Shown in pieces: positions 8,615-22,284 of a DNA stretch of 43,666 nucleotides. The DNA comes from Candidatus Moraniibacteriota bacterium (GTDB lineage Bacteria > Patescibacteriota > Minisyncoccia > Moranbacterales > GCA-2747515), in assembly GCA_029938745.1 (NCBI GenBank), contig JAOZUJ010000001.1:1-43666 (forward strand), given 5' to 3'. Below the pieces are notes generated by a model, which did not search any database, had not been told where the DNA came from, and was given only the letters and a program-made list of their open reading frames with translations. How positions within the stretch are numbered: the first letter of the stretch is position 1; each line of letters begins with the position of its first letter. The position numbers and the translations under genes were made by a program.

Positions 8615-9820
8615 CTAATTACGGCTCCCAGGCTCAACCCAATTTCCTTCTTTTTTAATGAGTTCAATGAGGGCATCAATTGCTCCTTCTTCTGGGATGT
8701 TGTATTCTATTACTTCTTTGTTTTTGTAGAGACTAATTTTACCTGGTGCTCCGCCGACGTATCCAAAATCTGCGTCTGCCATTTCTCCTGGACCGTTTAC
8801 TATGCAACCCATTACGGCGATTCTTACACCTGTTAAGTGCCCTAGTCTTTCTTTGATTTGTTTTGTGACTGTTTCTATATCAAAGAGTGTCCGTCCGCAT
8901 GACGGGCATGAGATGAATTCTGCTTTTGTGATGCGCCTCTGCGTTGCTTGAAGGATTGTGAAGCATACTGGTATTTCGTCTTCTGGTGGTTCTGTGAGTG
9001 ACACACGGAGAGTATCTCCGATACCATCCATCAGAAGTGTACCGATGCCAATTGTAGACTTTGCACGACCATCGTCCTGACTACCTGCTTCTGTCACACC
9101 AAGATGCACTGGATAATCCATTTTTTCTTCATCCATTTTGTCTACCAAAATTCTATTTGCCTCTATCATTATCATTGGATCGGATGATTTGATTGCTACT
9201 ACTATTTCATTGTAATCATATTTTTTGAACACACGCAGATATTCCATCACACTCTCAGCAAGTCCTTCTGGTGTGTTGCCATATCTTGCTAGCACTCGTC
9301 CTGAAAGTGAGCCCCAATTTGTACCAATTCTAATTGGTTTTTTTGTTTCTTTGAGTTTTTCTATAAATGGAATGAGTCCCTCCTCTATTCTATCTAATTC
9401 TTTTGCATATTCTTCGTCGGTCAAAACCTTATCATCATCTGCACGAGAATCCAACAAATTTCCAGGGTTTAATCGAATTTTATCTGCCTCTTCAAGTGCT
9501 GCAAAAGCTGCATTTTTATCAAAATGAATATCAGCAACAAGCGGCACATGACAATCATGCTCACTAGCCAATTTTTCTCTAATTTCCCTCAATGCTTTCA
9601 CATGCTTTACTGTCGGAGTTGTCAAACGCACGATTTCACTTCCAGCATCTACGCACCGCATAATCTGAGAAACCGTTGCGTCTATATCAAGTGTGTCTGT
9701 ATTTGTCATTGTTTGCACAACAACAGGGCTATCTCCACCAATCGCTATATCTCCCACCATCACTACCCGTGTTTTTCGTCGTGGTTTAAGTGCTTTAAAA
9801 TCTTCTTTTGCTTGTGTCAT
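8615..9820 (-). CDS. ispG: 4-hydroxy-3-methylbut-2-en-1-yl diphosphate synthase
   Basis: VGDIAIGGDSPVVVQTMTNTDT at the N-terminus; C-terminal 4Fe-4S ligands ISCPSCGRT and MGCIVNGPGE. Confidence 0.95.
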   Translation of the reverse strand: MTQAKEDFKALKPRRKTRVVMVGDIAIGGDSPVVVQTMTNTDTLDIDATVSQIMRCVDAGSEIVRLTTPTVKHVKALREIREKLASEHDCHVPLVADIHFDKNAAFAALEEADKIRLNPGNLLDSRADDDKVLTDEEYAKELDRIEEGLIPFIEKLKETKKPIRIGTNWGSLSGRVLARYGNTPEGLAESVMEYLRVFKKYDYNEIVVAIKSSDPMIMIEANRILVDKMDEEKMDYPVHLGVTEAGSQDDGRAKSTIGIGTLLMDGIGDTLRVSLTEPPEDEIPVCFTILQATQRRITKAEFISCPSCGRTLFDIETVTKQIKERLGHLTGVRIAVMGCIVNGPGEMADADFGYVGGAPGKISLYKNKEVIEYNIPEEGAIDALIELIKKEGNWVEPGSRN

Positions 9821-9917
9821 ATAATATAGTGTTAATTCTTAACTCCTTACTTGTCTCCAATTTTATGTAAAATAAAGCATTTTGTCAAAATAAAAATATG
9901 CAAAATAAGTAAAATAA

Positions 9918-9926
9918 TGGTAAAAT
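9918..9926 (+). promoter_or_regulatory. extended -10 promoter element upstream of 9958..11037
   Basis: TGgTAAAAT (TG at 9918-9919, TAAAAT at 9921-9926). The same TGgTAAAAT motif lies upstream of gpmI. The -35 is weak. Confidence 0.4.
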
Positions 9927-9957
9927 ATACTTTGTAAATATAAAACCACAAATTAAA

Positions 9958-11037
9958 ATGAAAGATCACAATTATATCGTTATTATGGCTGGTGGATCAG
10001 GCACAAGACTCTGGCCAATCTCACGCAAAGATCACCCAAAACAATTTCAATGTCTCACAAATGAAAAACAAACTCTTTTACAAGAAACTTTTGAACGTGT
10101 GTGTCCGCTTGCAGATTTTGATAAAATATTTGTTTCCACAACACAACAATATGCACAGCTCGTAAAAGAACAATTATCTGAATTACCAGAGGGGAATATT
10201 ATCATAGAACCATGTGGTCGCGATACAGCGCCTGCAATGGGACTTGTGGCACGTACAATCTATAAAAAAGACAAAGACGCAATCATAGCAACCACACCAT
10301 CTGATCATGCAATCAAAAATCCTAAAAATTATGTTTGTACTGTACAGACAGCATTTTCTGTAATTGAAGATCATCCAGAACGATTTGGACTCATCGGGAT
10401 TAATCCCACAGAACCAAGTACTGAGCTTGGCTATATTCAACTTGGTGATGAGTTTACGAAAAAATATAAAAATCGTGTTTTTGAGGCAGTAGCCTTCAAA
10501 GAAAAGCCTAATGCAAAGACAGCCAAAGAATATTTCTCACACTGGTCTTATCTGTGGAATGCTGCATATTTTGTTTTTAAAGCCTCTACTTTTATTGACA
10601 TGCTCAAAACACATACACCACACATTCTCAACGCACTTGAAAAGATGGATGGTATTTCTAATAAAAAACAACTTGAGATCTATAAGTCATTACCACGCGA
10701 GCCTATCGACACTGTCATCTTGGAAAAGCTTGCACCAAAGGAGCGATTTGTTGTTCCTGCAGATCTCGTATGGAGTGATGTCGGAAATTGGCGTACATTA
10801 CATGACTTCTATCAAAATGGAGAAAAAAATGTTGTCCGTGGAAAAGTACAAAAATTTGATACTGAAAATTGCCTTCTTTTTGGCAATAAATCAAAAACAA
10901 TCGCCACGATTGGACTCAGAGATATTGTCATCATTGATACTGAGGATGCTATACTCATTGCTCACAGAGATGAAGTTCACAATGTTAAAAAGATCATAGA
11001 CAAGCTCAAAGAAGATGACATGGAAGATCTTCTCTAA
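9958..11037 (+). CDS. mannose-1-phosphate guanylyltransferase (NTP-transferase domain only)
   Basis: MAGGSGTRLWPISR nucleotide-binding loop; 359 aa with no C-terminal cupin/isomerase domain. Confidence 0.8.
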   Translation: MKDHNYIVIMAGGSGTRLWPISRKDHPKQFQCLTNEKQTLLQETFERVCPLADFDKIFVSTTQQYAQLVKEQLSELPEGNIIIEPCGRDTAPAMGLVARTIYKKDKDAIIATTPSDHAIKNPKNYVCTVQTAFSVIEDHPERFGLIGINPTEPSTELGYIQLGDEFTKKYKNRVFEAVAFKEKPNAKTAKEYFSHWSYLWNAAYFVFKASTFIDMLKTHTPHILNALEKMDGISNKKQLEIYKSLPREPIDTVILEKLAPKERFVVPADLVWSDVGNWRTLHDFYQNGEKNVVRGKVQKFDTENCLLFGNKSKTIATIGLRDIVIIDTEDAILIAHRDEVHNVKKIIDKLKEDDMEDLL

Positions 11038-11058
11038 ATACTCACATAAAATATAAAA

Positions 11059-11090
11059 AACATCTACACGCTTGTATAGATGTTTCTTTA
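11059..11090. terminator. terminator hairpin between convergent genes
   Basis: aacatcta / tagatgtt 8-bp stem flanked by an A-run and a T-rich tail. Confidence 0.45.
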
Positions 11091-11108
11091 TTATAATTAA
11101 AGCTTCTT

Positions 11109-11561
11109 TTAGACATCCTTTAAAAAAGCTACACCATAAATATCAATGTCATCTCCGCACAGCCAGCCATATGTTGTACGAGAGTCCATTGATTGTCTTT
11201 TTTGATTATTTTCTTCCCAAATATCCTGACGACCCTCAAGCCAATAACACGATTTTTGCTTTTGCACGATTTTTTTAATATATGCACCATCACACTCATC
11301 GTGCGCACACTCAAATGCAATTACATCACCAACATGCGCTTCTGCTGTTGGCACAACAGTAACAAATGCATCATGCGCAAATCCTAAAGTTTTCATAGAA
11401 TTACCTTCAACCTGATATATGCGAGAATTCTCAACGTCATATCGCTCACTTCTATCAAATTGCGACATCACTGCAATATCTCCAGCACTCGTTTGAATCG
11501 GCACAGCAACAATAAAAATCGTTACAACAAATATAATAATATAATATTTCATTACAATCAA
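11109..11561 (-). CDS. lepB: signal peptidase I (S26 family)
   Basis: N-terminal TM helix; GNSM (Ser box), GDVIAF, YIKKIV (Lys box), SMDSR (box E). Confidence 0.6.
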   Translation of the reverse strand: MIVMKYYIIIFVVTIFIVAVPIQTSAGDIAVMSQFDRSERYDVENSRIYQVEGNSMKTLGFAHDAFVTVVPTAEAHVGDVIAFECAHDECDGAYIKKIVQKQKSCYWLEGRQDIWEENNQKRQSMDSRTTYGWLCGDDIDIYGVAFLKDV

Positions 11562-11612
11562 AAAATTATAATTAACGTATTACATTAGCACATTCCTCGT
11601 TTTTTAGCAAGA

Positions 11613-12563
11613 TTAAAAATCAATTTCAAGTGCCTCAAACCGACGTTTGTATTCTCCAAACACGATCGGACCATGTGGTTGTGGTAAAAAAATGAGATGT
11701 TCATCATTACATAAAATTAAAGCACCTTCTTTTTTTGTTTTTGGATTTTGCATGATCTTTTTTTGTTGTAATTTCTTTAATCTTTTTTCCATTGCCTTGT
11801 CAGCAAGAATCATTTCTCCAAATGATCGAATTGATCGTGTAATGATATTATCAAAAAGAGTCAATGTATGTATTGTATTATTACAACTATAATGTGGCTT
11901 ATATGCTTGAATCCACATATTTTTTTTGCAAAATTGTGAAAAATATTTTGTATCAAAAATTGGAATGATAAAAGCATACTCATGCGCTGCAAACAAATCA
12001 CGTGTTGGCACAGCAAGTGACTCTGTTGTAATGTGATAATTTAGACAAATACGATTATTTGTTTTATCATCATATCGTCGTACACCAAAAATATGTGAGA
12101 GTACTGTCATCATGAAACGCCCCGTCCAAATATGTCCAAATTTATACGCAATCAAAACATCCAGATCACTCCCACGCTCACAATTATGATATGAAAGTCT
12201 ACCCGTAACACAAATCATGCGTACAAACGGACTCACACGCAAAATAGACACAATGCGTCGCAATTTATGCATCTTTCGAAAACTGATATATTCTCGATCT
12301 CGTCTGGACTTCACCAATTTATCACGCCCAAACAGAAAATACATTCCATTTTTCTGATCAACATATTTCAATAAATCACAATCATTCAATGCCTCGACAA
12401 CCTGTGTCAACGACCATGTTTTAGTACTGTTATCTACACTACAACGAATCAAATGTTTCCATATTTCAAATGACGTTAGGGGATAATCCAAAACATCATA
12501 ATATGTTATTGTTGCAATAATATTTTTACACAAGATCTTATTCACATCATTTGAAAAAAACAA
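11613..12563 (-). CDS. hypothetical protein, possibly nucleotidyltransferase-fold
   Basis: 316 aa; RGSDLDVLI resembles the GS...DxD motif of pol-beta-type NTases; otherwise unrecognised. Confidence 0.4.
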   Translation of the reverse strand: MFFSNDVNKILCKNIIATITYYDVLDYPLTSFEIWKHLIRCSVDNSTKTWSLTQVVEALNDCDLLKYVDQKNGMYFLFGRDKLVKSRRDREYISFRKMHKLRRIVSILRVSPFVRMICVTGRLSYHNCERGSDLDVLIAYKFGHIWTGRFMMTVLSHIFGVRRYDDKTNNRICLNYHITTESLAVPTRDLFAAHEYAFIIPIFDTKYFSQFCKKNMWIQAYKPHYSCNNTIHTLTLFDNIITRSIRSFGEMILADKAMEKRLKKLQQKKIMQNPKTKKEGALILCNDEHLIFLPQPHGPIVFGEYKRRFEALEIDF

Positions 12564-12621
12564 AATGAATTATGCACAGCTGTGCATAAAACAATTCATA
12601 ATGTTTTTTTATTTTATCTTT

Positions 12622-15459
12622 TTACAAAAACTTTGCTGTTGGACTTTTTTTATTTTTTTTAAGATCTTTTGGCAATCCTGCAAAAATGAGTTCCCCGCCG
12701 AGCGCACCACCTTCCGGACCAAGCTCTATGACCCAATCAGAATGTTTAATAACATCTGTATTATGTTCTACCACTAACACAGTGTTTCCTTTGTCAACAA
12801 GTGCGTCAAGCATTTGTAATAATTTTTTTACATCATCAAAATGTAATCCAACTGTTGGTTCATCAAGGATATATAATGTTTTTCCAGTTGATTTACGAGC
12901 CAGTTCCGTTGCAAGCTTAATTCGCTGTGCTTCACCACCAGATAAATTTGTTGCGCTCTGCCCAAGTTGAATATATCCCAAACCAACTTCTTGCATTGCT
13001 TGTAATTTTGCAGCAATAAGTGGCTTGCTTTTGAAAAATTCATATGCATAATCAACACTCATATCCAATACTTCCGCAATTGTCACACCATTGTATTCCA
13101 CATCCAATATTTTACTATTATAACGCTTGCCACCGCATTCTTCACATGGAATATACATATCTGGTAACAAATGCATCTCAACTTTTACAGATCCATCACC
13201 ACGACACACTTCACAGCGACCGCCTCGCATATTAAAACTAAAGTGACTCGCATCAAATCCGCGCTCAATAGCCATGTCTGTCGCAGCGAAGAGGTCACGC
13301 ACATGTGAAAATACCCCTGTATATGTTGCTGTATTTGAGCGTGGCGTACGACCAATCGGATTTTGATCGATCATAATTACCTTGTTTATATTTTGCAATC
13401 CTGTAACCCTTTTATGCGCACCTGGCTCCACAGTTGACCGATGAAATTTCTTTGCTAACACACGTGATAAAATATCATGTACAAGTGTAGATTTACCACT
13501 ACCAGAAACACCACATACTGTTATAAATTTTCCAAGTGGAAAATCAACAGATACTTTTTGTAAATTATTTTCTCGCGCATCTTTAATAGACACGTTTTTT
13601 CCTGTGCCTTCACGCTTTCGTTTTTTGTCTGTTACCGTTAATTTACCAGATATATATTGCGCTGTTTTTGTTTTCGATTTTAACATTTGTGACATCGTAC
13701 CCGAAAAAATTAATTCACCCCCATCATCTCCTGCTCCAGGACCCATGTCGACAATCCAGTCAGCCTCTTTCATAACATCAGGATCATGCTCCACAATAAT
13801 TAACGTATTATTTGCACTTTGTAATTTTTTCATTGCCCTTATCAAACGGACCGTATCTCTACTGTGCAATCCAGTCGTTGGCTCATCAAGCACATAAATA
13901 ACACCCGTCAAATCTGATTTTATTTGTACAGCCAACCGAATGCGTTGTGCCTCCCCACCAGAAAGTGTGTTACTGGATCGTGACAATGTTAAATAATCTA
14001 CACCGACATCACACAGTGACCGTGCACGTGACGCCATCTCATCAACCAAAACACTTACAGCTGCACGCTCTGTTTTATTAATACCGTCCATCTTTTTTAC
14101 ATCTTCGATCAAAGTCACAAAATCACCCAACGCAATCGATGTGTATTTATCAATTGACTTTTCATTTACTGTCACAGCAAGATATTCTCTTTTGAGTCGC
14201 TTACCTTCACACAATGAACATGTTCTCTCAACCATATACTTTTCCAATTCTTTTCGCATATAATCTGACTTTGTGTTTTTATATCTTTCTTCCAAATCAA
14301 AAATAATACCATTAAAGTCACCCTTCTCTTTTTTTGGCTCTCCATAAAAAATAATTGCGAGATTTTCTTTTGAGATCTTTTTTACTGGCTTAGAAAGTGA
14401 AAATTTATATTTTTTTGAGAGGTTTTCTAAACTTTTTTTATGTTTACTAAATGCTGTATTTTTTCCACCTGATTTACTCCAAATATGAATTGCTCCTTCT
14501 TCTATAGATAGTTCATCATTTGGAATAAGAAGCGACGCATTAATTTCATTTTTAATACCGATACCATCACAATCAGAACACGCTCCATCAGGATTATTGA
14601 AAGAAAAGCATCGTGGTGTTAATTCAGATAAAACAAATCCTGATTCTTTACAATAAAAATCTTGTGAAAATTCTTCTTCAAACTCATCATATGCCACAAT
14701 ACACAATCCTTGTGATAATTTCATCGCAGTTTCTACAGAGTCCATCAGACATTCACGATCAAGTTCATTTCCATCATTGACCAAAGAATCAATTACAATA
14801 TCAATACGACTTGAAACATCATCGCTAACAATAAGCTCTGCATCTCTTACTGGCATAATTTTGTTATTGAAGCGTACACGGGCATACCCGTTTTGTTTTA
14901 TATTTTTGAGTATATTACTATCTTTTTTCTTTTCATCTGATAATGGCGCTAAAACTGTAATTTTTGTCCCCTTATCTGATGCCATAATTTTTGCAACAAT
15001 ATCACGTGTGCTTTTTCGTTTTAACGGACGACCTGTGAACGGACAATGTGGCACGCCAACCGTAGTAAAAAGGATTCGTAAATAATCATAGATTTCTGTC
15101 ATTGTCCCAACAGTTGAACGTATTGATTTCCCAACGCTTTTTTGATCAATTGCAATTGCTGGAGAAATGTTTTCAATACGATCCACATCTGGCTTATTCA
15201 TCACACCCATCAAACTGCGTGCATGTGTTGATAAACTCTCCATAAAACGACGGTTACTCTCTGCATAGATCACATCAAAGGCCAAAGAACTCTTCCCTGA
15301 GCCAGACAAACCAGTTACAACGGTCAACTCATCCCGCGGAATATCAACTGAAACATTTTTTAAATTATTTACGCGCGCATTATGAATATAAATTCGATTT
15401 GAATTTTTGTTATTTTTTTTAGACGTTGCTTTTTTACGAGAAGTTTTCTTTACTACCAT
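12622..15459 (-). CDS. uvrA: excinuclease ABC subunit A
   Basis: 945 aa; two ABC modules (Walker [13 protein letters not shown] and [11 protein letters not shown]; LSGGEAQR signature twice) and CxxC zinc modules. Confidence 0.97.
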
Positions 15460-15559
15460 ATATAATTAAAATAAATAGAAAATGAACCACATTAGTTACC
15501 AATGGTACAGCATTTTTGTCTTTTGGTCAACCGCAGCCCTGCGATACACGAGCATATAC

Positions 15560-15592
15560 AAAAAGTAACTTTCTTATAAAAAGTTACTTTTT
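15560..15592. terminator. AT-rich intrinsic terminator downstream of the giant gene
   Basis: Perfect 13-bp stem aaaaagtaacttt / aaagttacttttt with a 7-nt loop. Confidence 0.6.
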
Positions 15593-15638: not shown

Positions 15639-18600
15639 TTATTTCACTGAAGTGATTTTATCTTCTTTGATAACATCAACAATCCACCAATCCACCTGTA
15701 CATCCTCATCTGACTCTTGATTTAATCCAATGACAAAACTTTCACCATCAATAATGTTCTCAACGTGTGCAAAAATCGAACGGTCTGCATCCTTTACTGT
15801 AACAAATACATGACTATTTGCACGCACATCAGTTGTTTGAATAGATATTTCTAATGTGCCTTCTTTGATAACTACAGAGCCAATGTGTTGAGAATCTTCA
15901 TCTTCCATGACTGCAAATTTTCCCGTTGTTAATGCATCGGTTTCAATATCATCTGCAATGATCTTTGTTGCATTAAGTACACCGGCAAGTGTGAGGCCGC
16001 CTTCATCTGTTGTGTATAGAAGATTGTCTTCATCAAGTGCAATTAATAAATCTGTGAGACTTGTTTGTAATTCATCTATTGTGTCTACTTGTGTTTGCAT
16101 TAAACCTACTTTTGAATCTATTGAATCTAATAAATTTGATTGGTTATTTGCATCTTGTTGCATCTGTAAGACATTATCTTGCATTGTTCCATTTTCTGCT
16201 AATTGTGTTCCAAAGATCTTTGCTATTGTTGTAAGTTGTGTATCAATAGAGTCTTGTAATTGTGTGAGAGTCGAAATATTTGCATCTGTCTTTAATGTAT
16301 TTGATGTAATTGTGATATTTTGTTCCTGGATTGCACTTACTGTAAGTGGAATTATATCTGAATAAAACACTCCAAGTACTCCATTGTTTTCTCTCACTAC
16401 TTCTGGGATGACTGTTTGTAACTGCTGTGCCGAAAATCCTATTTTTTTATTTATTCCTACCTCACTATCTTTCCAATTATAACTAATTGGATTTATTTGC
16501 ATAAGCTCACTTAAACCATAATTAAGATTTGTAATGTTTTTCTTGAAATTTGTATCTGATGTTGTCATCACACCATTTGCAGAAAAAACTGTATGCCACC
16601 TCGCTGACCCCGATCCCAGCATCTGTGTTGCATCAGATGCGGGCACAACTTCATAAAGTGAACCGTTGCCAAGCATCATTTGATTTGATGCTGTTGGCTC
16701 TGCATTGTAACCAAGTGCTGTTGAATTTGTGTATACATTTTGATCTTCAAGATAATGTGCAACTGAGCCTTGTGATGTAATATTACCAATTTGATTACCC
16801 TCTGCTAACTCAAGTGTAGTTGTGTCAATAATCTTAAATTGATAAATACCATTGTTAGACAGTCCACCAGGTGGCGTACCTCCCGTTGTAAATCGTAAAT
16901 TTACATAATCCCCTGCATTACCAAAGCTATGTCCTGCCAGTGTAATTCTGTTAGTTGTCACATTAACACTACTGGGTGCAAATGTCTTAGGAGTTCCTGT
17001 ACCGTTAAAATTATTAAATGCTCCATCACCAACAGCAACATTATCATCTCCTTGATTATAAAGTAATGTGCCTCTACCTAATCCTATTACTTCCTCTCCT
17101 GTGTTATACCATAGAGAACTTCTGCCAAATCCAGAAGAATAATTACCAGTATTATTTCGAAGTGCGCCATATCCAAAACCTGAAGCACTATCAGAAGCAT
17201 TATTCATGAGAGCAAAGCTTCCAAATCCAGAAGCTGCTTGACTGGTATTATTATATAGAGCATTATATCCAAATCCAGAAGCATAATTTCCTGTATTACT
17301 TTGTAGAGCATTATATCCAAATCCAGACACATAATCAGCAGTGTTATCCGAAAGAGCATTTGCTCCAAATCCAGAAACATAAAGACCTGTATTGTCATAA
17401 AGTGCACTTGCCCCAAATCCAGAAGCTGCTCCACCAGTGTTATTTCGAAGCGCTTGATATCCAGCTCCAGTAGAATAAAGACCAGTGTTATTTTGTAAAG
17501 CATTGTACCCAACGCCAACTGAGCCCCATCCAGTATTACTTTGTAAAGAATTTACACCAAATCCTGCAGACTGACTACTGGTATGTGATTGCAATGCGTT
17601 GTGTCCAAATGCAACATTTTCATGTCCACTGACATTTGTATTTAATGCATTGATGCCAACTGCCGTATTGCTATTTGTTGTGAGATCATCATTTATACCC
17701 GCACCACTTCCGAGAAAGACACTTGTTGTCCCAGTAATTCCATCAGTAAGACCACTTATCGCACTTGCACCACCACCAGACGTAAATGACACCCAGCTCG
17801 ATCCATCATGCCCTTCAAAATCTGTACCAGTCCATCTGATCGATCCTGCATTTGTATTTGTGGTTGTACCTAAATTTATTGCACCAGCAACCTGTAAGTT
17901 TTCATTTGGCGTAATTGTTCCAATTCCCACATTTCCAGTTCCATTTTCTATCATGAGTCGAGTTAAGTTTTCATCTCTGAACATCAGATTTTCACCCTCA
18001 TCTATATCCTGATGAATTCTCCACTGTTGTGCAGTAAATGTATTTTCAAAATGATATGATGGATCCTTAACACCATCTGGTGATTCACTCTTGATCTGAC
18101 CTGCAACATGTAATTCCTTATTTGGATTATTCACATTACCAATAATCACGCTACTCATTGCATCTCCTGGGGCTAATCGTAAATGTTGCGTTCCTGGTCC
18201 AGTCGTGGCATATGTAGAAATTGTATTTGCATGAATCATCGTTCCTGCACTGCCAGCATATCCAAGTGCAGTACTGTTGACTGTTAAATCCCCTCCATGA
18301 ATAGATAAATTACCATCATTAACAGCTAATTTTGATGCAGATGGAATTAAACCAAATCCAAGAGGAGGCTCTGAACCAACAAACATTTGTCCATTATCAT
18401 TTATGATCATTTCAACTTGACTATCTCCATCTGAATCGAAACCTAAATAATTATCCGTTGTATCGTAACTAATAATACCCTCATTATGTTCCGCACCAAT
18501 ATGAAGCGAACTGGGGCCAAGATAAAGATCTTGCCATCTCAGAGATGATGTGCCTAAATTGTACGTATTATTTAATTCTGGAACAATATCTCCATCTACC

Positions 18601-20753
18601 TGTAACTTGTATTGAGGATTATCTGTGCCAATGCCAACGTGTCCAGAATGTTCAATAACAAAACTTTCTTCTCCATTACTACGATTGATAATTGAGAATC
18701 TGCCAGCATCCTGACCAGGTACAATCGCATCTGTAGCTAATGCTCTAAATCCCCATACACCTCCACCATCTGACTCCAAAATAATGTCAGCAGATTTAGG
18801 CTCATAAGGACCTGGCGGAGGATCTGCATTAGCTTTTACATGAAGCGTGGATAAAGGATTATCTGTTCCAATTCCCACACGTCCATATGGCGTAATTCTC
18901 ATCCTTTCTAAATTATCTGTTCCAAAAATAAGTGGATCAGCTTCATAATTACCAATGATCAAGCCATCTGGGCTTGTGTCACCTGGATTCGATGACCCCT
19001 CATCTCCTAAATTTACAATTTCACTATATCCAGCCAAAGTCGGCAATCCCCATCTCGTTCGCGCCCTCTCTGACCCATGAGCCAACATAGATACTCTTGA
19101 TGCATCTGAGATAACGCCCGTACTTGCAAAATTATTTACACCAAATGTTTGTGTCCATATCCGAGCATCCTGAGCCGTAATAGCATTTTTTGATACTTCA
19201 ATATCTGGACGACTTCTGCCATATGTTGGAAATGTCAACTCATGACTCACATCCCAATCACCGTGAAAATATCGTCCTGCATTTTCTAATGATACGTGTG
19301 GATTATTATCAGTGCCAATGCCAATGTTGCCATTGCCTTTAATAACCATACTATTTTTCATGATTCCATCTAAACCCTTTGTGACAAATTCTATACGACC
19401 AGGTATACCGTTTGTAAAATCACTACCATCAACACGCATACGAATTTGTGCTAATCGATTTAAACTATTACCTTCAAAAGCCATTGCATCTAGGGCTGTA
19501 ACTACATCGCCATTGTGTACTGCCAAGGGATTTTCACTAGTTCCTCTATATCGTTGACCTCCAAAGTAACTTCCCATCCATGGTGTATCTGAATGTGAAA
19601 CACCTGTAAAGCCAGAATGTTTACCGTCTAGCGATTGATGTGTAAACCCTCCTATTGATTTGATACGATCCTCTGCGTAAAGACTTATATTGTAATATTC
19701 AAAAGAAGCATCTGTAAAAATATTTAGTGTAGCGGCGTTAATGTACAATTCTGTATCTGACACGATCTTTCTAATTCCATATTCCCTTTCAATTCCCAAA
19801 TCATCTACAACTTTTAGAATTGTTGTTTTAGTTGTAAGTTCCGATAAAAAATGTGTTCCAATGCCAGTAACCTTCGCTGCACTATCTACAGTAATAGTTC
19901 CTGTTCCATTTTTTATATCTGATGGATTAATGTGCAATGATGCTTGCGGACTACTAGTCCCAATCCCTACATTTCCATCCTCAGTAATTCTCACTCTTTC
20001 AACTCCATTTGTTTTGAGGAGTAATGCATAATTATCATTTGTACCTAATTGTGCAATTTGTCCAAATGAATTACCATTTTGTGCAAAAAAATTACCATTA
20101 ACTACATCAGGGATTGGTTTGTTTATCCAACTTGTTCCATCAAAGTACATGATGTCTCCACTTGTTGGATTTTGTGATATTTCTACTCCATCAATATCTG
20201 TCATTGTAATTGTACTGCCTGCATTTCCACAGCTCCAATGATCTTTTTTTGCATTCCAATACAACATCTCGTTATCATTTTCACACTGGATTCTTCCTGA
20301 ACTTGATACTTTTAATCCTCCCTTATTTACTGTGCCAAAAACTGTTTTCGATGGTAATTTACATTCCCACTGATTTCTCCCTTTTTGCCATTGTAATACC
20401 CTGTCATCTTTTGTGCATTTGAGATAATTATCTTCTACTGTGACAGAATTTTCATCATAGAGAAAGTGTGGGGATGTGTTTACTTCTTTTATGTATATTT
20501 TTTGAGTTGTTGTATCTGTATTTTGTGCAATTTGCGTATCTTGTTGTTGTGTTGCATCTTGTTGTACTTGCTCTTGTGCACGTACACGTACATGATCCAT
20601 AAAACCGACCACAATTAATGTGATCACTAATGCAGTTGTGACTGTTTTGAAATGATATTGTTTTTTTATTCTTTGTTTTGTTTTGTATGTTGAACGTTCT
20701 TTATGTAAAAAGTTGGGAGATGCTATTTTCTTTTTATGCATAGGGAGATGCAT
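15639..20753 (-). CDS. giant (1704 aa) membrane-anchored tail-fibre-like surface protein with a peptidase-S74-type intramolecular chaperone module
   Basis: N-terminal basic region plus one TM/signal anchor (VTTALVITLIVVGF). Five G(N/R/H)(V/I)GIGT...L(H/Q)V motifs. About 14 tandem 16-aa GFGxNALxxNTGxxxS repeats. SDTNFKKNITNLNYGLSELMQINPISYNWKD...GFSAQQLQTVIPEVV matches the S74 chaperone-of-endosialidase signature. A coiled-coil region and a terminal beta-rich region follow. Confidence 0.85.
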   Translation of the reverse strand: MHLPMHKKKIASPNFLHKERSTYKTKQRIKKQYHFKTVTTALVITLIVVGFMDHVRVRAQEQVQQDATQQQDTQIAQNTDTTTQKIYIKEVNTSPHFLYDENSVTVEDNYLKCTKDDRVLQWQKGRNQWECKLPSKTVFGTVNKGGLKVSSSGRIQCENDNEMLYWNAKKDHWSCGNAGSTITMTDIDGVEISQNPTSGDIMYFDGTSWINKPIPDVVNGNFFAQNGNSFGQIAQLGTNDNYALLLKTNGVERVRITEDGNVGIGTSSPQASLHINPSDIKNGTGTITVDSAAKVTGIGTHFLSELTTKTTILKVVDDLGIEREYGIRKIVSDTELYINAATLNIFTDASFEYYNISLYAEDRIKSIGGFTHQSLDGKHSGFTGVSHSDTPWMGSYFGGQRYRGTSENPLAVHNGDVVTALDAMAFEGNSLNRLAQIRMRVDGSDFTNGIPGRIEFVTKGLDGIMKNSMVIKGNGNIGIGTDNNPHVSLENAGRYFHGDWDVSHELTFPTYGRSRPDIEVSKNAITAQDARIWTQTFGVNNFASTGVISDASRVSMLAHGSERARTRWGLPTLAGYSEIVNLGDEGSSNPGDTSPDGLIIGNYEADPLIFGTDNLERMRITPYGRVGIGTDNPLSTLHVKANADPPPGPYEPKSADIILESDGGGVWGFRALATDAIVPGQDAGRFSIINRSNGEESFVIEHSGHVGIGTDNPQYKLQVDGDIVPELNNTYNLGTSSLRWQDLYLGPSSLHIGAEHNEGIISYDTTDNYLGFDSDGDSQVEMIINDNGQMFVGSEPPLGFGLIPSASKLAVNDGNLSIHGGDLTVNSTALGYAGSAGTMIHANTISTYATTGPGTQHLRLAPGDAMSSVIIGNVNNPNKELHVAGQIKSESPDGVKDPSYHFENTFTAQQWRIHQDIDEGENLMFRDENLTRLMIENGTGNVGIGTITPNENLQVAGAINLGTTTNTNAGSIRWTGTDFEGHDGSSWVSFTSGGGASAISGLTDGITGTTSVFLGSGAGINDDLTTNSNTAVGINALNTNVSGHENVAFGHNALQSHTSSQSAGFGVNSLQSNTGWGSVGVGYNALQNNTGLYSTGAGYQALRNNTGGAASGFGASALYDNTGLYVSGFGANALSDNTADYVSGFGYNALQSNTGNYASGFGYNALYNNTSQAASGFGSFALMNNASDSASGFGYGALRNNTGNYSSGFGRSSLWYNTGEEVIGLGRGTLLYNQGDDNVAVGDGAFNNFNGTGTPKTFAPSSVNVTTNRITLAGHSFGNAGDYVNLRFTTGGTPPGGLSNNGIYQFKIIDTTTLELAEGNQIGNITSQGSVAHYLEDQNVYTNSTALGYNAEPTASNQMMLGNGSLYEVVPASDATQMLGSGSARWHTVFSANGVMTTSDTNFKKNITNLNYGLSELMQINPISYNWKDSEVGINKKIGFSAQQLQTVIPEVVRENNGVLGVFYSDIIPLTVSAIQEQNITITSNTLKTDANISTLTQLQDSIDTQLTTIAKIFGTQLAENGTMQDNVLQMQQDANNQSNLLDSIDSKVGLMQTQVDTIDELQTSLTDLLIALDEDNLLYTTDEGGLTLAGVLNATKIIADDIETDALTTGKFAVMEDEDSQHIGSVVIKEGTLEISIQTTDVRANSHVFVTVKDADRSIFAHVENIIDGESFVIGLNQESDEDVQVDWWIVDVIKEDKITSVK
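16325..16559 (-). other. peptidase S74-like autoproteolytic chaperone domain inside 15639..20753
   Basis: The Ser codon at 16557-16559 starts the SD(x)3K(x)NI...NPISYNWK...IGFSAQQLQ.VIPEVV pattern known from endosialidase/tail-spike C-terminal chaperone domains. Confidence 0.65.
17020..17670 (-). repeat. in-frame 48-nt (16-aa) tandem repeat block, about 13-14 units
   Basis: ccaaatcc-type unit starts at 17077, 17125, 17173, 17221, 17269, 17317, 17365, 17413, 17461, 17509, 17557 and 17605, exactly 48 nt apart. Confidence 0.85.
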
Positions 20754-20833
20754 TATTTTTTAAGTTTCTTTATTATATCATGTTTTTTTGTTTAGGTAAA
20801 TTTGCTTGAGTAAATTTTATTTATAAATAAATT

Positions 20834-20869
20834 AATGACCCATTTAATGACGTCATTAAATGGGTCATT
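20834..20869. terminator. 36-nt perfect palindrome, terminator downstream of pepA
   Basis: aatgacccatttaatgac / gtcattaaatgggtcatt; T-run on the + side, AT-rich on the - side; core TGACGTCA. Confidence 0.7.
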
Positions 20870-20892: not shown

Positions 20893-22284
20893 CTATTTCT
20901 CCAACAAATCTACTAATAGTCGTACAGGAGAACCTTTTGCTCCTTTTGCAAGTTGCTCATCAAAAACTGCCGTCATTGTTGGTGCAATGTCGATATGCAT
21001 CCATTGTTTGTGATCTTTTACAAAATGCTTGAGAAACATTGCAGCTGTAATCGCGCCACCGATTCCAGGCTGTCCTTTTGTGCGAATATTAGAAATATCT
21101 CCATATGTTCCTGCAATCTCTGCACTGTATTCATCCCACAATGGCAACCGCCATGCATAATCACCTGTTTTTTCTGCACTCTTAAGAGTTTGCTGTGCTA
21201 ATTCATCATCGTCTGTAAAAATTGCACTTGCACGCTCACCAAGCGCAACAAGAGCTGCTCCTGTGAGTGTTGCCACATCAATTACTTGTGTTGGTTTGTA
21301 CATTTTTGCGTATGTGAGTGCATCTGCAAGAATGAGTCGCCCTTCTGCATCAGTGTGTCCCACTTCCACATGTGTCCCATCCATCATCGTCACAATATCA
21401 CCTGGACGATAGCTGTGCCCACTTGCCATATTTTCTACTACTGGAATCAGTGCGACAATATTTTTTTTGGTTTTTAACTTTGCCACTGTTAGCATCGTCG
21501 CAATTACTGCCGCACCACCACTCATGTCCATCATCATCTCTAACCCAAATGGATGTGGTTTTGTATCAATGCCACCACTATCAAACGTTACACCCTTTCC
21601 CACAAGTACTGTTGGTTTTTTATTTGGTGCTGTTCCTATATATTCCAAGATCATAAACCGTGACTGATTTGCACTTCCTTGTCCAACAGATAACACACCA
21701 TTCATTTTTTTACGTCGCATTTGTTTTTCATCCATAACACGCATTTTAATCTTTGTGCCCTTTATTGCTTTGCGTGTTGTTGCTACAAGCTGTGCTGGTG
21801 TCATATCACATCCAGGTGTATTTGCAAGATCACGACAAAAATTTACTTGTGTCGCAATTGTGACGCCCTTACGGACATCTTGTCTTTTTAATGTTTTGTC
21901 AGTTTTATTTACAATCACTACAATCTCTCCCACATCACCAAATCCTTCTTTTGGCACAGTTTTATATTTGCGAAATTCATAGTGTGCCATATACGCAGCT
22001 TCTGCAAAAACTTGTCCCAATTCTTTATCTAAATTATCAAAAGATGTCAGATCTTTCCATAAGATCTCAACACGTCCTAAATTATATTTTTTTGCCTCCT
22101 GTACAATTGTGCGTACCAAAATAATCCACTGACGCATCGTCATCTCCTCTTTCTTTGGTACTTTAATTTCTAAAATCTCTCTTTTTCCGTCAATCAAAAA
22201 ACGATTTACTCTTGCTTTTTCATTTAATACTACACACGTACATTTTTTACGTGATAATTTCTTATCGACAACTATGATCTTCAT
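20893..22284 (-). CDS. pepA: leucyl aminopeptidase (M17)
   Basis: VGKGVTFDSGGIDTKP and HTDAEGRLILADAL metal-binding motifs. Confidence 0.9.
   Translation of the reverse strand: MKIIVVDKKLSRKKCTCVVLNEKARVNRFLIDGKREILEIKVPKKEEMTMRQWIILVRTIVQEAKKYNLGRVEILWKDLTSFDNLDKELGQVFAEAAYMAHYEFRKYKTVPKEGFGDVGEIVVIVNKTDKTLKRQDVRKGVTIATQVNFCRDLANTPGCDMTPAQLVATTRKAIKGTKIKMRVMDEKQMRRKKMNGVLSVGQGSANQSRFMILEYIGTAPNKKPTVLVGKGVTFDSGGIDTKPHPFGLEMMMDMSGGAAVIATMLTVAKLKTKKNIVALIPVVENMASGHSYRPGDIVTMMDGTHVEVGHTDAEGRLILADALTYAKMYKPTQVIDVATLTGAALVALGERASAIFTDDDELAQQTLKSAEKTGDYAWRLPLWDEYSAEIAGTYGDISNIRTKGQPGIGGAITAAMFLKHFVKDHKQWMHIDIAPTMTAVFDEQLAKGAKGSPVRLLVDLLEK

Follow-up and report, generated by a model that had tools for sequence, protein, structure and literature searches.

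The stretch of DNA analysed here (the window, 43,666 nucleotides) is an entire contig (C104) of a 1.18-Mb assembly of a Candidatus Moraniibacteriota bacterium (G000; 197 contigs, 92.6% complete). Its largest open reading frame (ORF) is one intact frame of 1,704 codons on the minus strand (15639-20753), which we discuss as a candidate surface fibre gene. Positions are given in window coordinates and amino acids are numbered from the first codon of this frame. The gene lies between uvrA (12622-15459, minus strand) and the M17 leucyl aminopeptidase gene pepA (20893-22284, minus strand), and the rest of the contig encodes housekeeping and cell-envelope functions: dxs, sufS, ispG, manC (mannose-1-phosphate guanylyltransferase), a LexA-like S24 protein, a class II aminoacyl-tRNA synthetase, RNase Y, iPGM, trigger factor and nusA. 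No tRNA genes are found in the window. The encoded protein combines an N-terminal export segment, a cysteine-containing N-domain, a long shaft and a C-terminal Peptidase_S74 chaperone module. It is of a kind that is already known, the cellular use of S74 fibres as in the mosaic adhesive trimer (MAT) proteins of Bdellovibrio bacteriovorus.

The gene appears to be transcribed from its own signals. A promoter-like site on the minus strand (20772..20800; TTTACC-17 nt-TATAAT with a TG extension, TTTACC-17-TGATATAAT) lies 19 nt 5' of the first ATG and matches the consensus at 10 of 12 positions, with the TG ahead of the -10 element (extended -10). Both this promoter and the 5' leader can be aligned to those of a paralogue on contig C65. 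Because the equivalent first ATG of that paralogue runs into a stop codon, the true start is probably Met5 (ATG at 20741). Between pepA and the fibre gene is a 16-bp perfect palindromic hairpin (AATGACCCATTTAATGACGTCATTAAATGGGTCATT, 20834..20869, not assigned to a strand) that resembles a bidirectional terminator. This 36-nt perfect palindrome, with the core TTTAATGACGTCATTAAA, has at least six intergenic hairpin copies in the assembly (in the window and on contigs C33, C65, C102, C143 and C165), and a variant copy sits ahead of the fibre paralogue on C65. A related tandem TGACGTCATTAA pattern is found at window position ~7804. At the other end, an AT-rich hairpin followed by a T run (AAAGTAACTTT...AAAGTTACTTTTT, 15558..15592, minus strand) lies ~50 nt past the stop codon and is also terminator-like. 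It was read directly from the sequence, and was missed by the consensus terminator scan because its stem has few G-C pairs. An earlier reading of this DNA made without database searches (the sequence-only reading) had described the largest gene of the window, flanked by uvrA and pepA and equipped with its own terminators, and the ORF list, the hairpins on both sides and the promoter agree with this description.

The Pfam family Peptidase_S74 (PF13884) matches aa 1399-1454 across its full profile (1-58) with 48.9 bits, against a cut-off of 22, and in a six-frame scan of the genome the S74 of this gene scored 55.1 bits. Pfam, AlphaFold2 (AF2) and PDB profile comparisons place the S74 or intramolecular chaperone core at aa 1399-1464 (16362..16559, minus strand). 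The catalytic dyad S-D-x-x-x-K is present as SDTNFK (S1399-D-T-N-F-K1404), with S1399 as the nucleophile and K1404 as the base. The motif is invariant in nine modules of the G000 genome, and an alignment of 20 sequences shows no variation in its Ser and Lys. The S74 chaperone module proposed in the sequence-only reading is thus confirmed, both by a hidden Markov model match above the cut-off and by the dyad.

We modelled aa 1290-1704 with AF2 as a monomer, using the 20-sequence alignment. The S74 core is predicted with a local confidence score (pLDDT) of ~80-90. It is followed by one uninterrupted helix of ~109 residues (aa 1464-1572, pLDDT 80-91), a poorly predicted linker (aa 1574-1621) and a beta-sandwich (aa 1624-1693, pLDDT ~90), in line with the coiled coil and C-terminal beta-rich domain that had been read from the letters. 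The long helix starts at a conserved AIQEQN, is found in all nine of the nine C-terminal modules of G000 and is presumed to form the trimeric coiled coil of the chaperone (aa 1465-1572; 16038..16361, minus strand). The linker and terminal sandwich (aa 1573-1704; 15642..16037, minus strand) end in VDWWIV and are probably of the K1-lyase_C type, judged by Pfam, AF2 and Foldseek. The Pfam family K1-lyase_C (PF24146, cut-off 27) scores 29.2 bits for the last 135 aa alone and 22.7 bits in the whole protein. Foldseek returned 120 matches at E <= 0.001 among the predicted viral structures of BFVD; most of the top-ranking named matches are S74/ICA or tail-fibre proteins and some are K1-lyase_C proteins (best E 8.7e-6). 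Matches in the PDB were weak (all E >= 0.007) and are used here only as support for the end domain; they are the C-terminal sandwiches of tailspikes and depolymerases (7W1C/7W1D among them) and, in addition, 3GW6.

Profile comparison relates this region to both viral and cellular proteins. A profile of the C-terminal 415 residues and 19 relatives matched the tail fibres 8JOV and 6F45 (~1e-17) and the MyRF protein (7DC3, 1.9e-12) in the PDB, as well as four MAT proteins: Bd2133 (8OND, 1.8e-9), Bd1334 (8OML, 3.3e-6), Bd3182 (8OJN, 1.1e-5) and Bd2439 (8OL4, 1.5e-3). T5 pb1 (4UW8), the GA-1 neck appendage and the K1F chaperone (3GW6) were also matched.

Nine G000 paralogues are most strongly conserved in their C-terminal module (292-330 residues), and this extends to the closing F-D-W-F-I-V. 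In most database homologues the stretch past the Ser has the usual length of ~80-110 residues, and only a minority carry the extension. The terminal sandwich was detected in 52 of 400 other Patescibacteria genomes sampled. Since the coiled coil and the beta domain both lie after the S74 cleavage Ser, the order of the modules indicates that they are most likely part of a chaperone fragment that is discarded, rather than of the working tip. We conjecture that they strengthen trimer nucleation outside the cell, where the chains are dilute.

The shaft (aa 236-1014; 17712..20048, minus strand) was delimited by motif search and by PDB and PHROG matches. It contains five G-x-[VI]-G-I-G-T motifs, each followed by P-x-x-x-L, that begin at aa 260, 475, 624, 704 and 940 (19929-19976, 19284-19331, 18837-18884, 18597-18644 and 17889-17936, all on the minus strand). 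Only 0.004 such motifs are expected from 2,000 shuffles of the protein, so the five spaced GxGIGT motifs of the sequence-only reading are a genuine feature. The only PDB sequence match of the whole protein is Bd3182 (8OJN/8ONB/8ONC), to which aa 237-293 align on the proximal capping loop (E 4e-4). Because of this alignment, and because the motif is as published, we identify the GxGIGT motifs as predicted MAT capping loops. Two PHROG tail-fibre families also match the shaft, phrog_9942 (aa 616-826, 2.9e-27) and phrog_18345 (aa 251-341), and a tail spike family, phrog_4636, matches aa 1022-1071. When eight segments were searched separately against Pfam at E <= 5, no match was found for aa 55-945 or for the repeat block described below, and the whole protein has no NCBIfam match.

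Distal to the capping loops are ~14-15 units of a 16-aa repeat, S-G-F-G-x-N-A-L-x-x-N-T-G-x-x-x (aa 1015-1254; 16992..17711, minus strand), presumed to form a beta-roll or beta-helix. The 14-unit block that had been noted earlier is in exact register over aa 1031-1254, and a degenerate unit is present at 1015. The 48-nt units are mutually only 64-75% identical in DNA sequence, which makes a recent expansion or contraction of the block unlikely. A YadA head was considered for these repeats and dropped, as the block alone has no Pfam match to the YadA head or stalk at E <= 5. The segment before the cleavage site (aa 1255-1398; 16560..16991, minus strand) ends in LGSGSARWHTVFSANGVMTT and would be the distal end of the mature fibre. 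The LG....RW.......G...T-SD junction is also found in homologues.

Several of these matches raise the possibility of a tailspike-like enzymatic role, in which the unannotated shaft segments of an exported trimer would break down or modify a host or biofilm polysaccharide, as phage depolymerases do. The terminal domain probably falls into the family of K1 capsule lyase C-terminal domains and is placed by Foldseek near the C-terminal domains of depolymerases, a weak match to End_tail_spike (endosialidase) was found at aa 1354-1397, and aa 270-620 and 780-930 have no assigned family. We consider an enzymatic role improbable. The End_tail_spike match is restricted to the stalk part of the model (positions 113-159 of 160), the K1-lyase_C-type domain lies beyond the cleavage site and does not carry the catalysis in the K1 lyase, and no lyase or hydrolase catalytic domain was detected in the whole protein or its segments with Pfam and NCBIfam.

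The protein starts with a basic, Lys/Arg-rich region, followed by its only hydrophobic segment (aa 37-53) and the sequence VRVRA-QEQ (aa 1-58; 20580..20753, minus strand), which by hydropathy is a Sec signal peptide or a signal anchor. The site after the hydrophobic segment (V-x-A, then Q or E) is kept in three relatives (on C65, C45 and L025). Given this conservation, the segment may be cleaved off, as a Sec signal peptide whose basic n-region is long, rather than stay as a permanent anchor. The protein had been called membrane-anchored in the sequence-only reading; the basic N-terminus and single hydrophobic segment are there, but a conserved signal-peptidase-like site follows them and an anchor is not established. 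The next part (aa 59-235; 20049..20579, minus strand) consists of a Gln/Thr-rich spacer and a conserved N-domain with two Cys...W.C units, presumed to be the cell-proximal module. The N-terminal 220 residues are 44-52% identical in two G000 paralogues, and the N-domain was found in 6 of 151 genomes from the order. It has 180 matches in a set of 1.84 billion representative proteins, of which ~20 carry the whole domain near the N-terminus; in the others the Cys unit is repeated inside giant proteins. A search for related loci with the N-domain alignment matched one Moraniibacteriota metagenome-assembled genome (MAG).

Every recognisable module of the protein is of phage type, as would be expected if the gene were part of a virus or of a phage-tail-like particle (a prophage remnant, a tailocin or the fibre of an extracellular contractile injection system). 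This explanation is largely refuted, and we give it next to no credence. Virion fibres are assembled in the cytoplasm and do not need an N-terminal export segment. The housekeeping flanks extend over the whole 43.7-kb contig, with no phage genes among the neighbours, and neither Phage_sheath_1 nor Terminase_6N has a match anywhere in the assembly at its 92.6% completeness. Ten copies of the S74 module are scattered over contigs, and the composition of the gene is native: its GC content is 0.33-0.39 along its length, similar to that of the neighbours, and horizontal transfer as judged by composition was rejected. The absence of flanking phage structural, integrase or lysis genes, as first read from the letters, is therefore borne out by the housekeeping and envelope genes around it and by the lack of sheath and terminase genes in the assembly.

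Compared with the congeners, synteny breaks at this gene, which marks a point of rearrangement. The block ispG-manC-lexA-like-x-uvrA1 is conserved in congeners, and pepA lies 52 to 80 kb from it in the three congeners that have both on one contig. Congener pepA adjoins a second uvrA paralogue (uvrA2), at 112 bp in G005, ~3 kb in G011 and ~35 kb in G003. No fibre gene is present at the uvrA1 or the pepA/uvrA2 places of the congeners. In G000 the order is pepA, then the fibre gene, then uvrA1. The C65 paralogue (C65:625-5317), which has the leader, the N-domain and the C-terminal module in common with this gene, lies directly upstream of uvrA2, so that both placeable fibre genes with this N-domain are directly upstream of a uvrA paralogue. 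This arrangement suggests a rearrangement via paralogous fibre or uvrA genes.

A gene located exactly at a synteny breakpoint, in a MAG of 197 contigs many of which end inside members of the family, could also be an assembly chimera of two paralogues. We regard this as highly improbable, because DNA similarity between the paralogues reaches at most ~87% over stretches of no more than 108 nt, which is too little to mislead an assembler. The 5.1-kb frame is also open throughout and its domains are in a coherent order.

The sequence-only reading presented a lone gene embedded among housekeeping genes. This part did not hold, as the gene is one of at least ten mosaic family genes that occupy ~5% of the genome. 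In G000, 10 frames of 321 to 3,087 aa have an S74 match and are scattered over contigs, and 19 open-frame pieces carry capping loops, many of them cut by contig ends, for a total of 63.9 kb (5.4% of the DNA). The modules of these members are 30-70% identical and their overall order is not shared; other members carry phage collar domains, an RCC1 propeller, serial repeats of ~50 aa or beta-propeller-like repeats. We found no full-length orthologue among 24 relatives. The best match is 53% identical over aa 1134-1699, and single modules reach 50-70% identity. In a word-indexed protein search no relative covered more than 57% of the protein and the most significant match aligned over 13%, and a protein search with the C-terminal region returned only 11 proteins. 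The whole protein matched nothing in the genome contig collection, and only a 32-residue match was found in metagenome contigs. Several database homologues are listed with the family PF26696.

S74 frames are found in 10 of 11 congeners (1-5 copies each). In a sample of 400 other genomes from the phylum, 89 have them, mostly in 1-4 copies and in frames of up to 8,840 aa. The ten copies of G000 are the highest count seen in this sampling. The common end modules and differing shafts and inserts of the paralogues, of which there are at least ten, suggest a diversified recognition set.

A fibre of the same build could instead serve the cell's own envelope, as a coat or spacer, in self-aggregation or biofilm formation, or as a phage decoy or shield. 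A family that takes up 5.4% of the genome could fit a bulk structural coat, and S74 frames in only ~22% of sampled Patescibacteria do not point to a universal need of episymbiosis. We nevertheless find this explanation unlikely. Even the genus provides no full-length orthologue and the domains are combined as a mosaic, a pattern of diversifying pressure from a variable partner and not of a structural coat. The characterised relatives, moreover, act on other cells.

Other members of the family show further features. In a congener, a Candidatus Moraniibacteriota MAG (JBBQZC010000024.1; L025:6766-9635), the relative of this gene consists of two frames, one of 154 aa with the N-domain and one of 834 aa with the S74 domain. 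The 44 residues ITIGYDLNVQNPAGNGQLSIGNLIFGTGIDGTGSTLSSGNVGIG are found at the frame junction and again ~480 residues further on, which has the appearance of internal recombination, of a deletion or of an error in the assembly. Fibre fragments on C151 and C113 have a pair of phage tail-collar domains (Pfam Collar, 1.2e-40) and, after them, His-x-His units in series (…SHGHSVDPPST…GSHAHSVDPPST…GNHRHSVDPPST…). These units are reminiscent of the metal-binding HxH needles of T4-type fibres. Fragments on C181 and C186 have a full RCC1-like seven-blade propeller (WD40_RLD, 1.7e-98) between capping-loop modules. They also carry a second type of N-terminal module (…AAPDNELTYHGKLTD…), which is shared with a 1,318-aa paralogue on C118. 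On the minus strand of C118, a frame at 9288-13845 (reverse-complement coordinates) encodes a 1,519-aa secreted protein with SWDVSSVTNM-type repeats, which are presumably BspA/DUF285-like leucine-rich repeats, and adjoins the 3,087-aa fibre gene. In the closed genome of the congener G005, the same types of shaft module occur in several frames (2,469-3,259 aa) that cluster at ~0.92-1.19 Mb, and some C-terminal modules there hold stop codons.

We think it fairly likely that the protein is a Sec-exported, homotrimeric surface fibre of the phage tail-fibre and MAT type, which would cleave itself and bind another cell, and that it is one of a set of at least ten mosaic paralogues. In this scheme, the chain would be exported via the N-terminal signal or anchor segment, and the fibre would be held at the cell by that segment or by the conserved Cys-containing N-domain. 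By analogy with the K1F endosialidase, T5 pb1 and Bd3182, the C-terminal modules of three chains (each made up of the S74 core, the coiled coil of ~109 residues and the beta-sandwich) would trimerise and template the folding of an interwoven beta-helical shaft from the C- to the N-terminus. The Ser1399-Lys1404 dyad would then cut before S1399 and free a chaperone fragment of 306 residues. The mature fibre of ~1,340 residues would remain, tethered at its N-terminal end and with a beta-helical free tip. This tip may bind a surface structure of another cell, probably a glycan. If this Moranbacteria-type organism is an episymbiont, the other cell would be its host.

A domesticated fibre acting as a host-attachment adhesin had been proposed in the sequence-only reading. 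The gene is cellular, is not part of a prophage and is of the tail-fibre and S74 kind, as that proposal had it, although it is not a single gene. Host attachment is the best inference, because the nearest characterised relatives, the MAT proteins, are trimeric surface adhesins used on other cells.

Some observations weigh against a self-cleaving adhesive fibre. About 60% of the shaft has no recognisable family and could conceal an activity, enzymatic or otherwise. The terminal sandwich often closes giant frames elsewhere, some of them without S74, and so may have a function beyond help with folding. The AF2 model of the N-domain, made from three sequences, has a mean pLDDT of 42 and was not used. 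In the monomer model of the C-terminal part, pLDDT is below ~45 over aa 1290-1395 (30-43 in the segment before the cleavage site); such values are expected for a stretch that would fold only as an interwoven trimer. The check by AlphaFold and Foldseek that had been suggested for separate segments, carried out on monomers only, therefore gave a fibre- and chaperone-like C-terminal part, while the models of the shaft end and the N-domain were not confident.

More tentatively, the paralogues might form a recombining cassette repertoire and, at the same time, the C-terminal fragment might have a role of its own. In the first part of this joint proposal, the 5' leader with the N-domain and the 306-aa C-terminal module would act as homology arms between which shafts and inserts are reshuffled, resetting the host range of an episymbiont. 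In the second part, the coiled coil with its lectin-like sandwich would be a second released product or an extracellular assembly handle.

Full-text literature searches returned no paper that ties S74, tail-fibre-like or MAT proteins to Patescibacteria. In a 2024 perspective, host contact was discussed mainly in terms of type IV pili and of "surface proteins predicted to be adhesins", which are not named (PMC11665869). What is particular to the genome described here is the size of the repertoire, the extended chaperone module, the N-domain with its Cys units and the uvrA-linked position at a breakpoint. For the recognition and holding of hosts by Patescibacteria, the family would supply concrete candidates that are large, fast-changing and phage-derived, that account for ~5% of a 1.2-Mb genome and that occur in about a fifth of the phylum genomes sampled. 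The lineage has no cultured member, which limits this prospect, but the biochemistry of the candidates can be tested, namely whether the chain cuts itself at S1399 and whether the mature tip binds glycans. The MAT principle would also reach beyond Gram-negative predators, to a distantly related lineage whose cell envelope is of another kind.

Among known systems, the YadA-type autotransporters resemble the protein in being repetitive trimeric surface adhesins with short Gly/Asn/Ala-rich repeats, and some database homologues carry YadA-head repeats. Their polarity is opposite, as the cell-proximal end is N-terminal here, and the whole protein has no Pfam match to a YadA anchor, head or stalk. 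The phage fibres K1F endosialidase (3GW6), T5 pb1 (4UW8), the S16 long tail fibre tip (6F45) and the GA-1 neck appendage (3GUD) have the S74 fold, the dyad, a stalk before the cut and a coiled coil behind it. They are parts of virions that fold in the cytoplasm and lack a signal peptide, whereas this gene is cellular, has an export segment and lies among housekeeping genes. The K1 capsule lyase of Klebsiella phage NTUH-K2044-K1-1 (PF24146; 7W1C/7W1D) resembles the last ~70 residues in fold and, when these are scanned alone, in family profile. The lyase keeps this domain at the end of a tailspike enzyme, whereas here it follows the S74 site and a long coiled coil.

Another cellular use of the S74/ICA domain is found in MyRF (7DC3), where self-cleavage is coupled to trimerisation and a motif of the capping-loop type lies upstream. 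Cleavage of MyRF separates a transcription factor at the N-terminus from the membrane anchor at the C-terminus. In the protein described here, the export or anchor segment is N-terminal instead, and the cut would free a C-terminal fragment outside the cell.

The closest parallel is the MAT family. B. bacteriovorus has 21 chromosomal fibre genes of this family, 13 of which end in S74 with SDxxxK (Caulton et al. 2024, PMC10769870). All MAT proteins have a signal peptide and a conserved N-terminal domain, and their shafts are interwoven trimeric beta-helices with capping loops (V-G-G/N-pi-x-x-P-x-x-x-L) and exchangeable tips (PMC10769870). The fibres are found on the predator surface, one member has been shown to bind a prey glycan, and in Bd3182, the structural representative of the S74 subgroup, self-cleavage was shown at S782 (PMC10769870). 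Relatives are listed in predators, the FCB group and Omnitrophica, with none in Patescibacteria (Supplementary Table S3 of PMC10769870). The present family differs in occurring in an ultra-small bacterium of the Patescibacteria and not in a Gram-negative predator, and its N-domain, with two Cys...W.C units, could not be linked to that of MAT. The C-terminal module that would be released is about twice as long (306 aa), with a predicted helix of ~109 residues and a K1-lyase_C-type sandwich, and the protein has 1,700 aa compared with ~1,000. The two systems nevertheless share their plan: both are chromosomal, multi-copy and mosaic, and in both an export signal precedes a conserved N-domain, the shaft carries capping loops of the V-G-x-G-x-x-x-P-x-x-x-L type and the chain ends in a C-terminal S74 module with SDxxxK.

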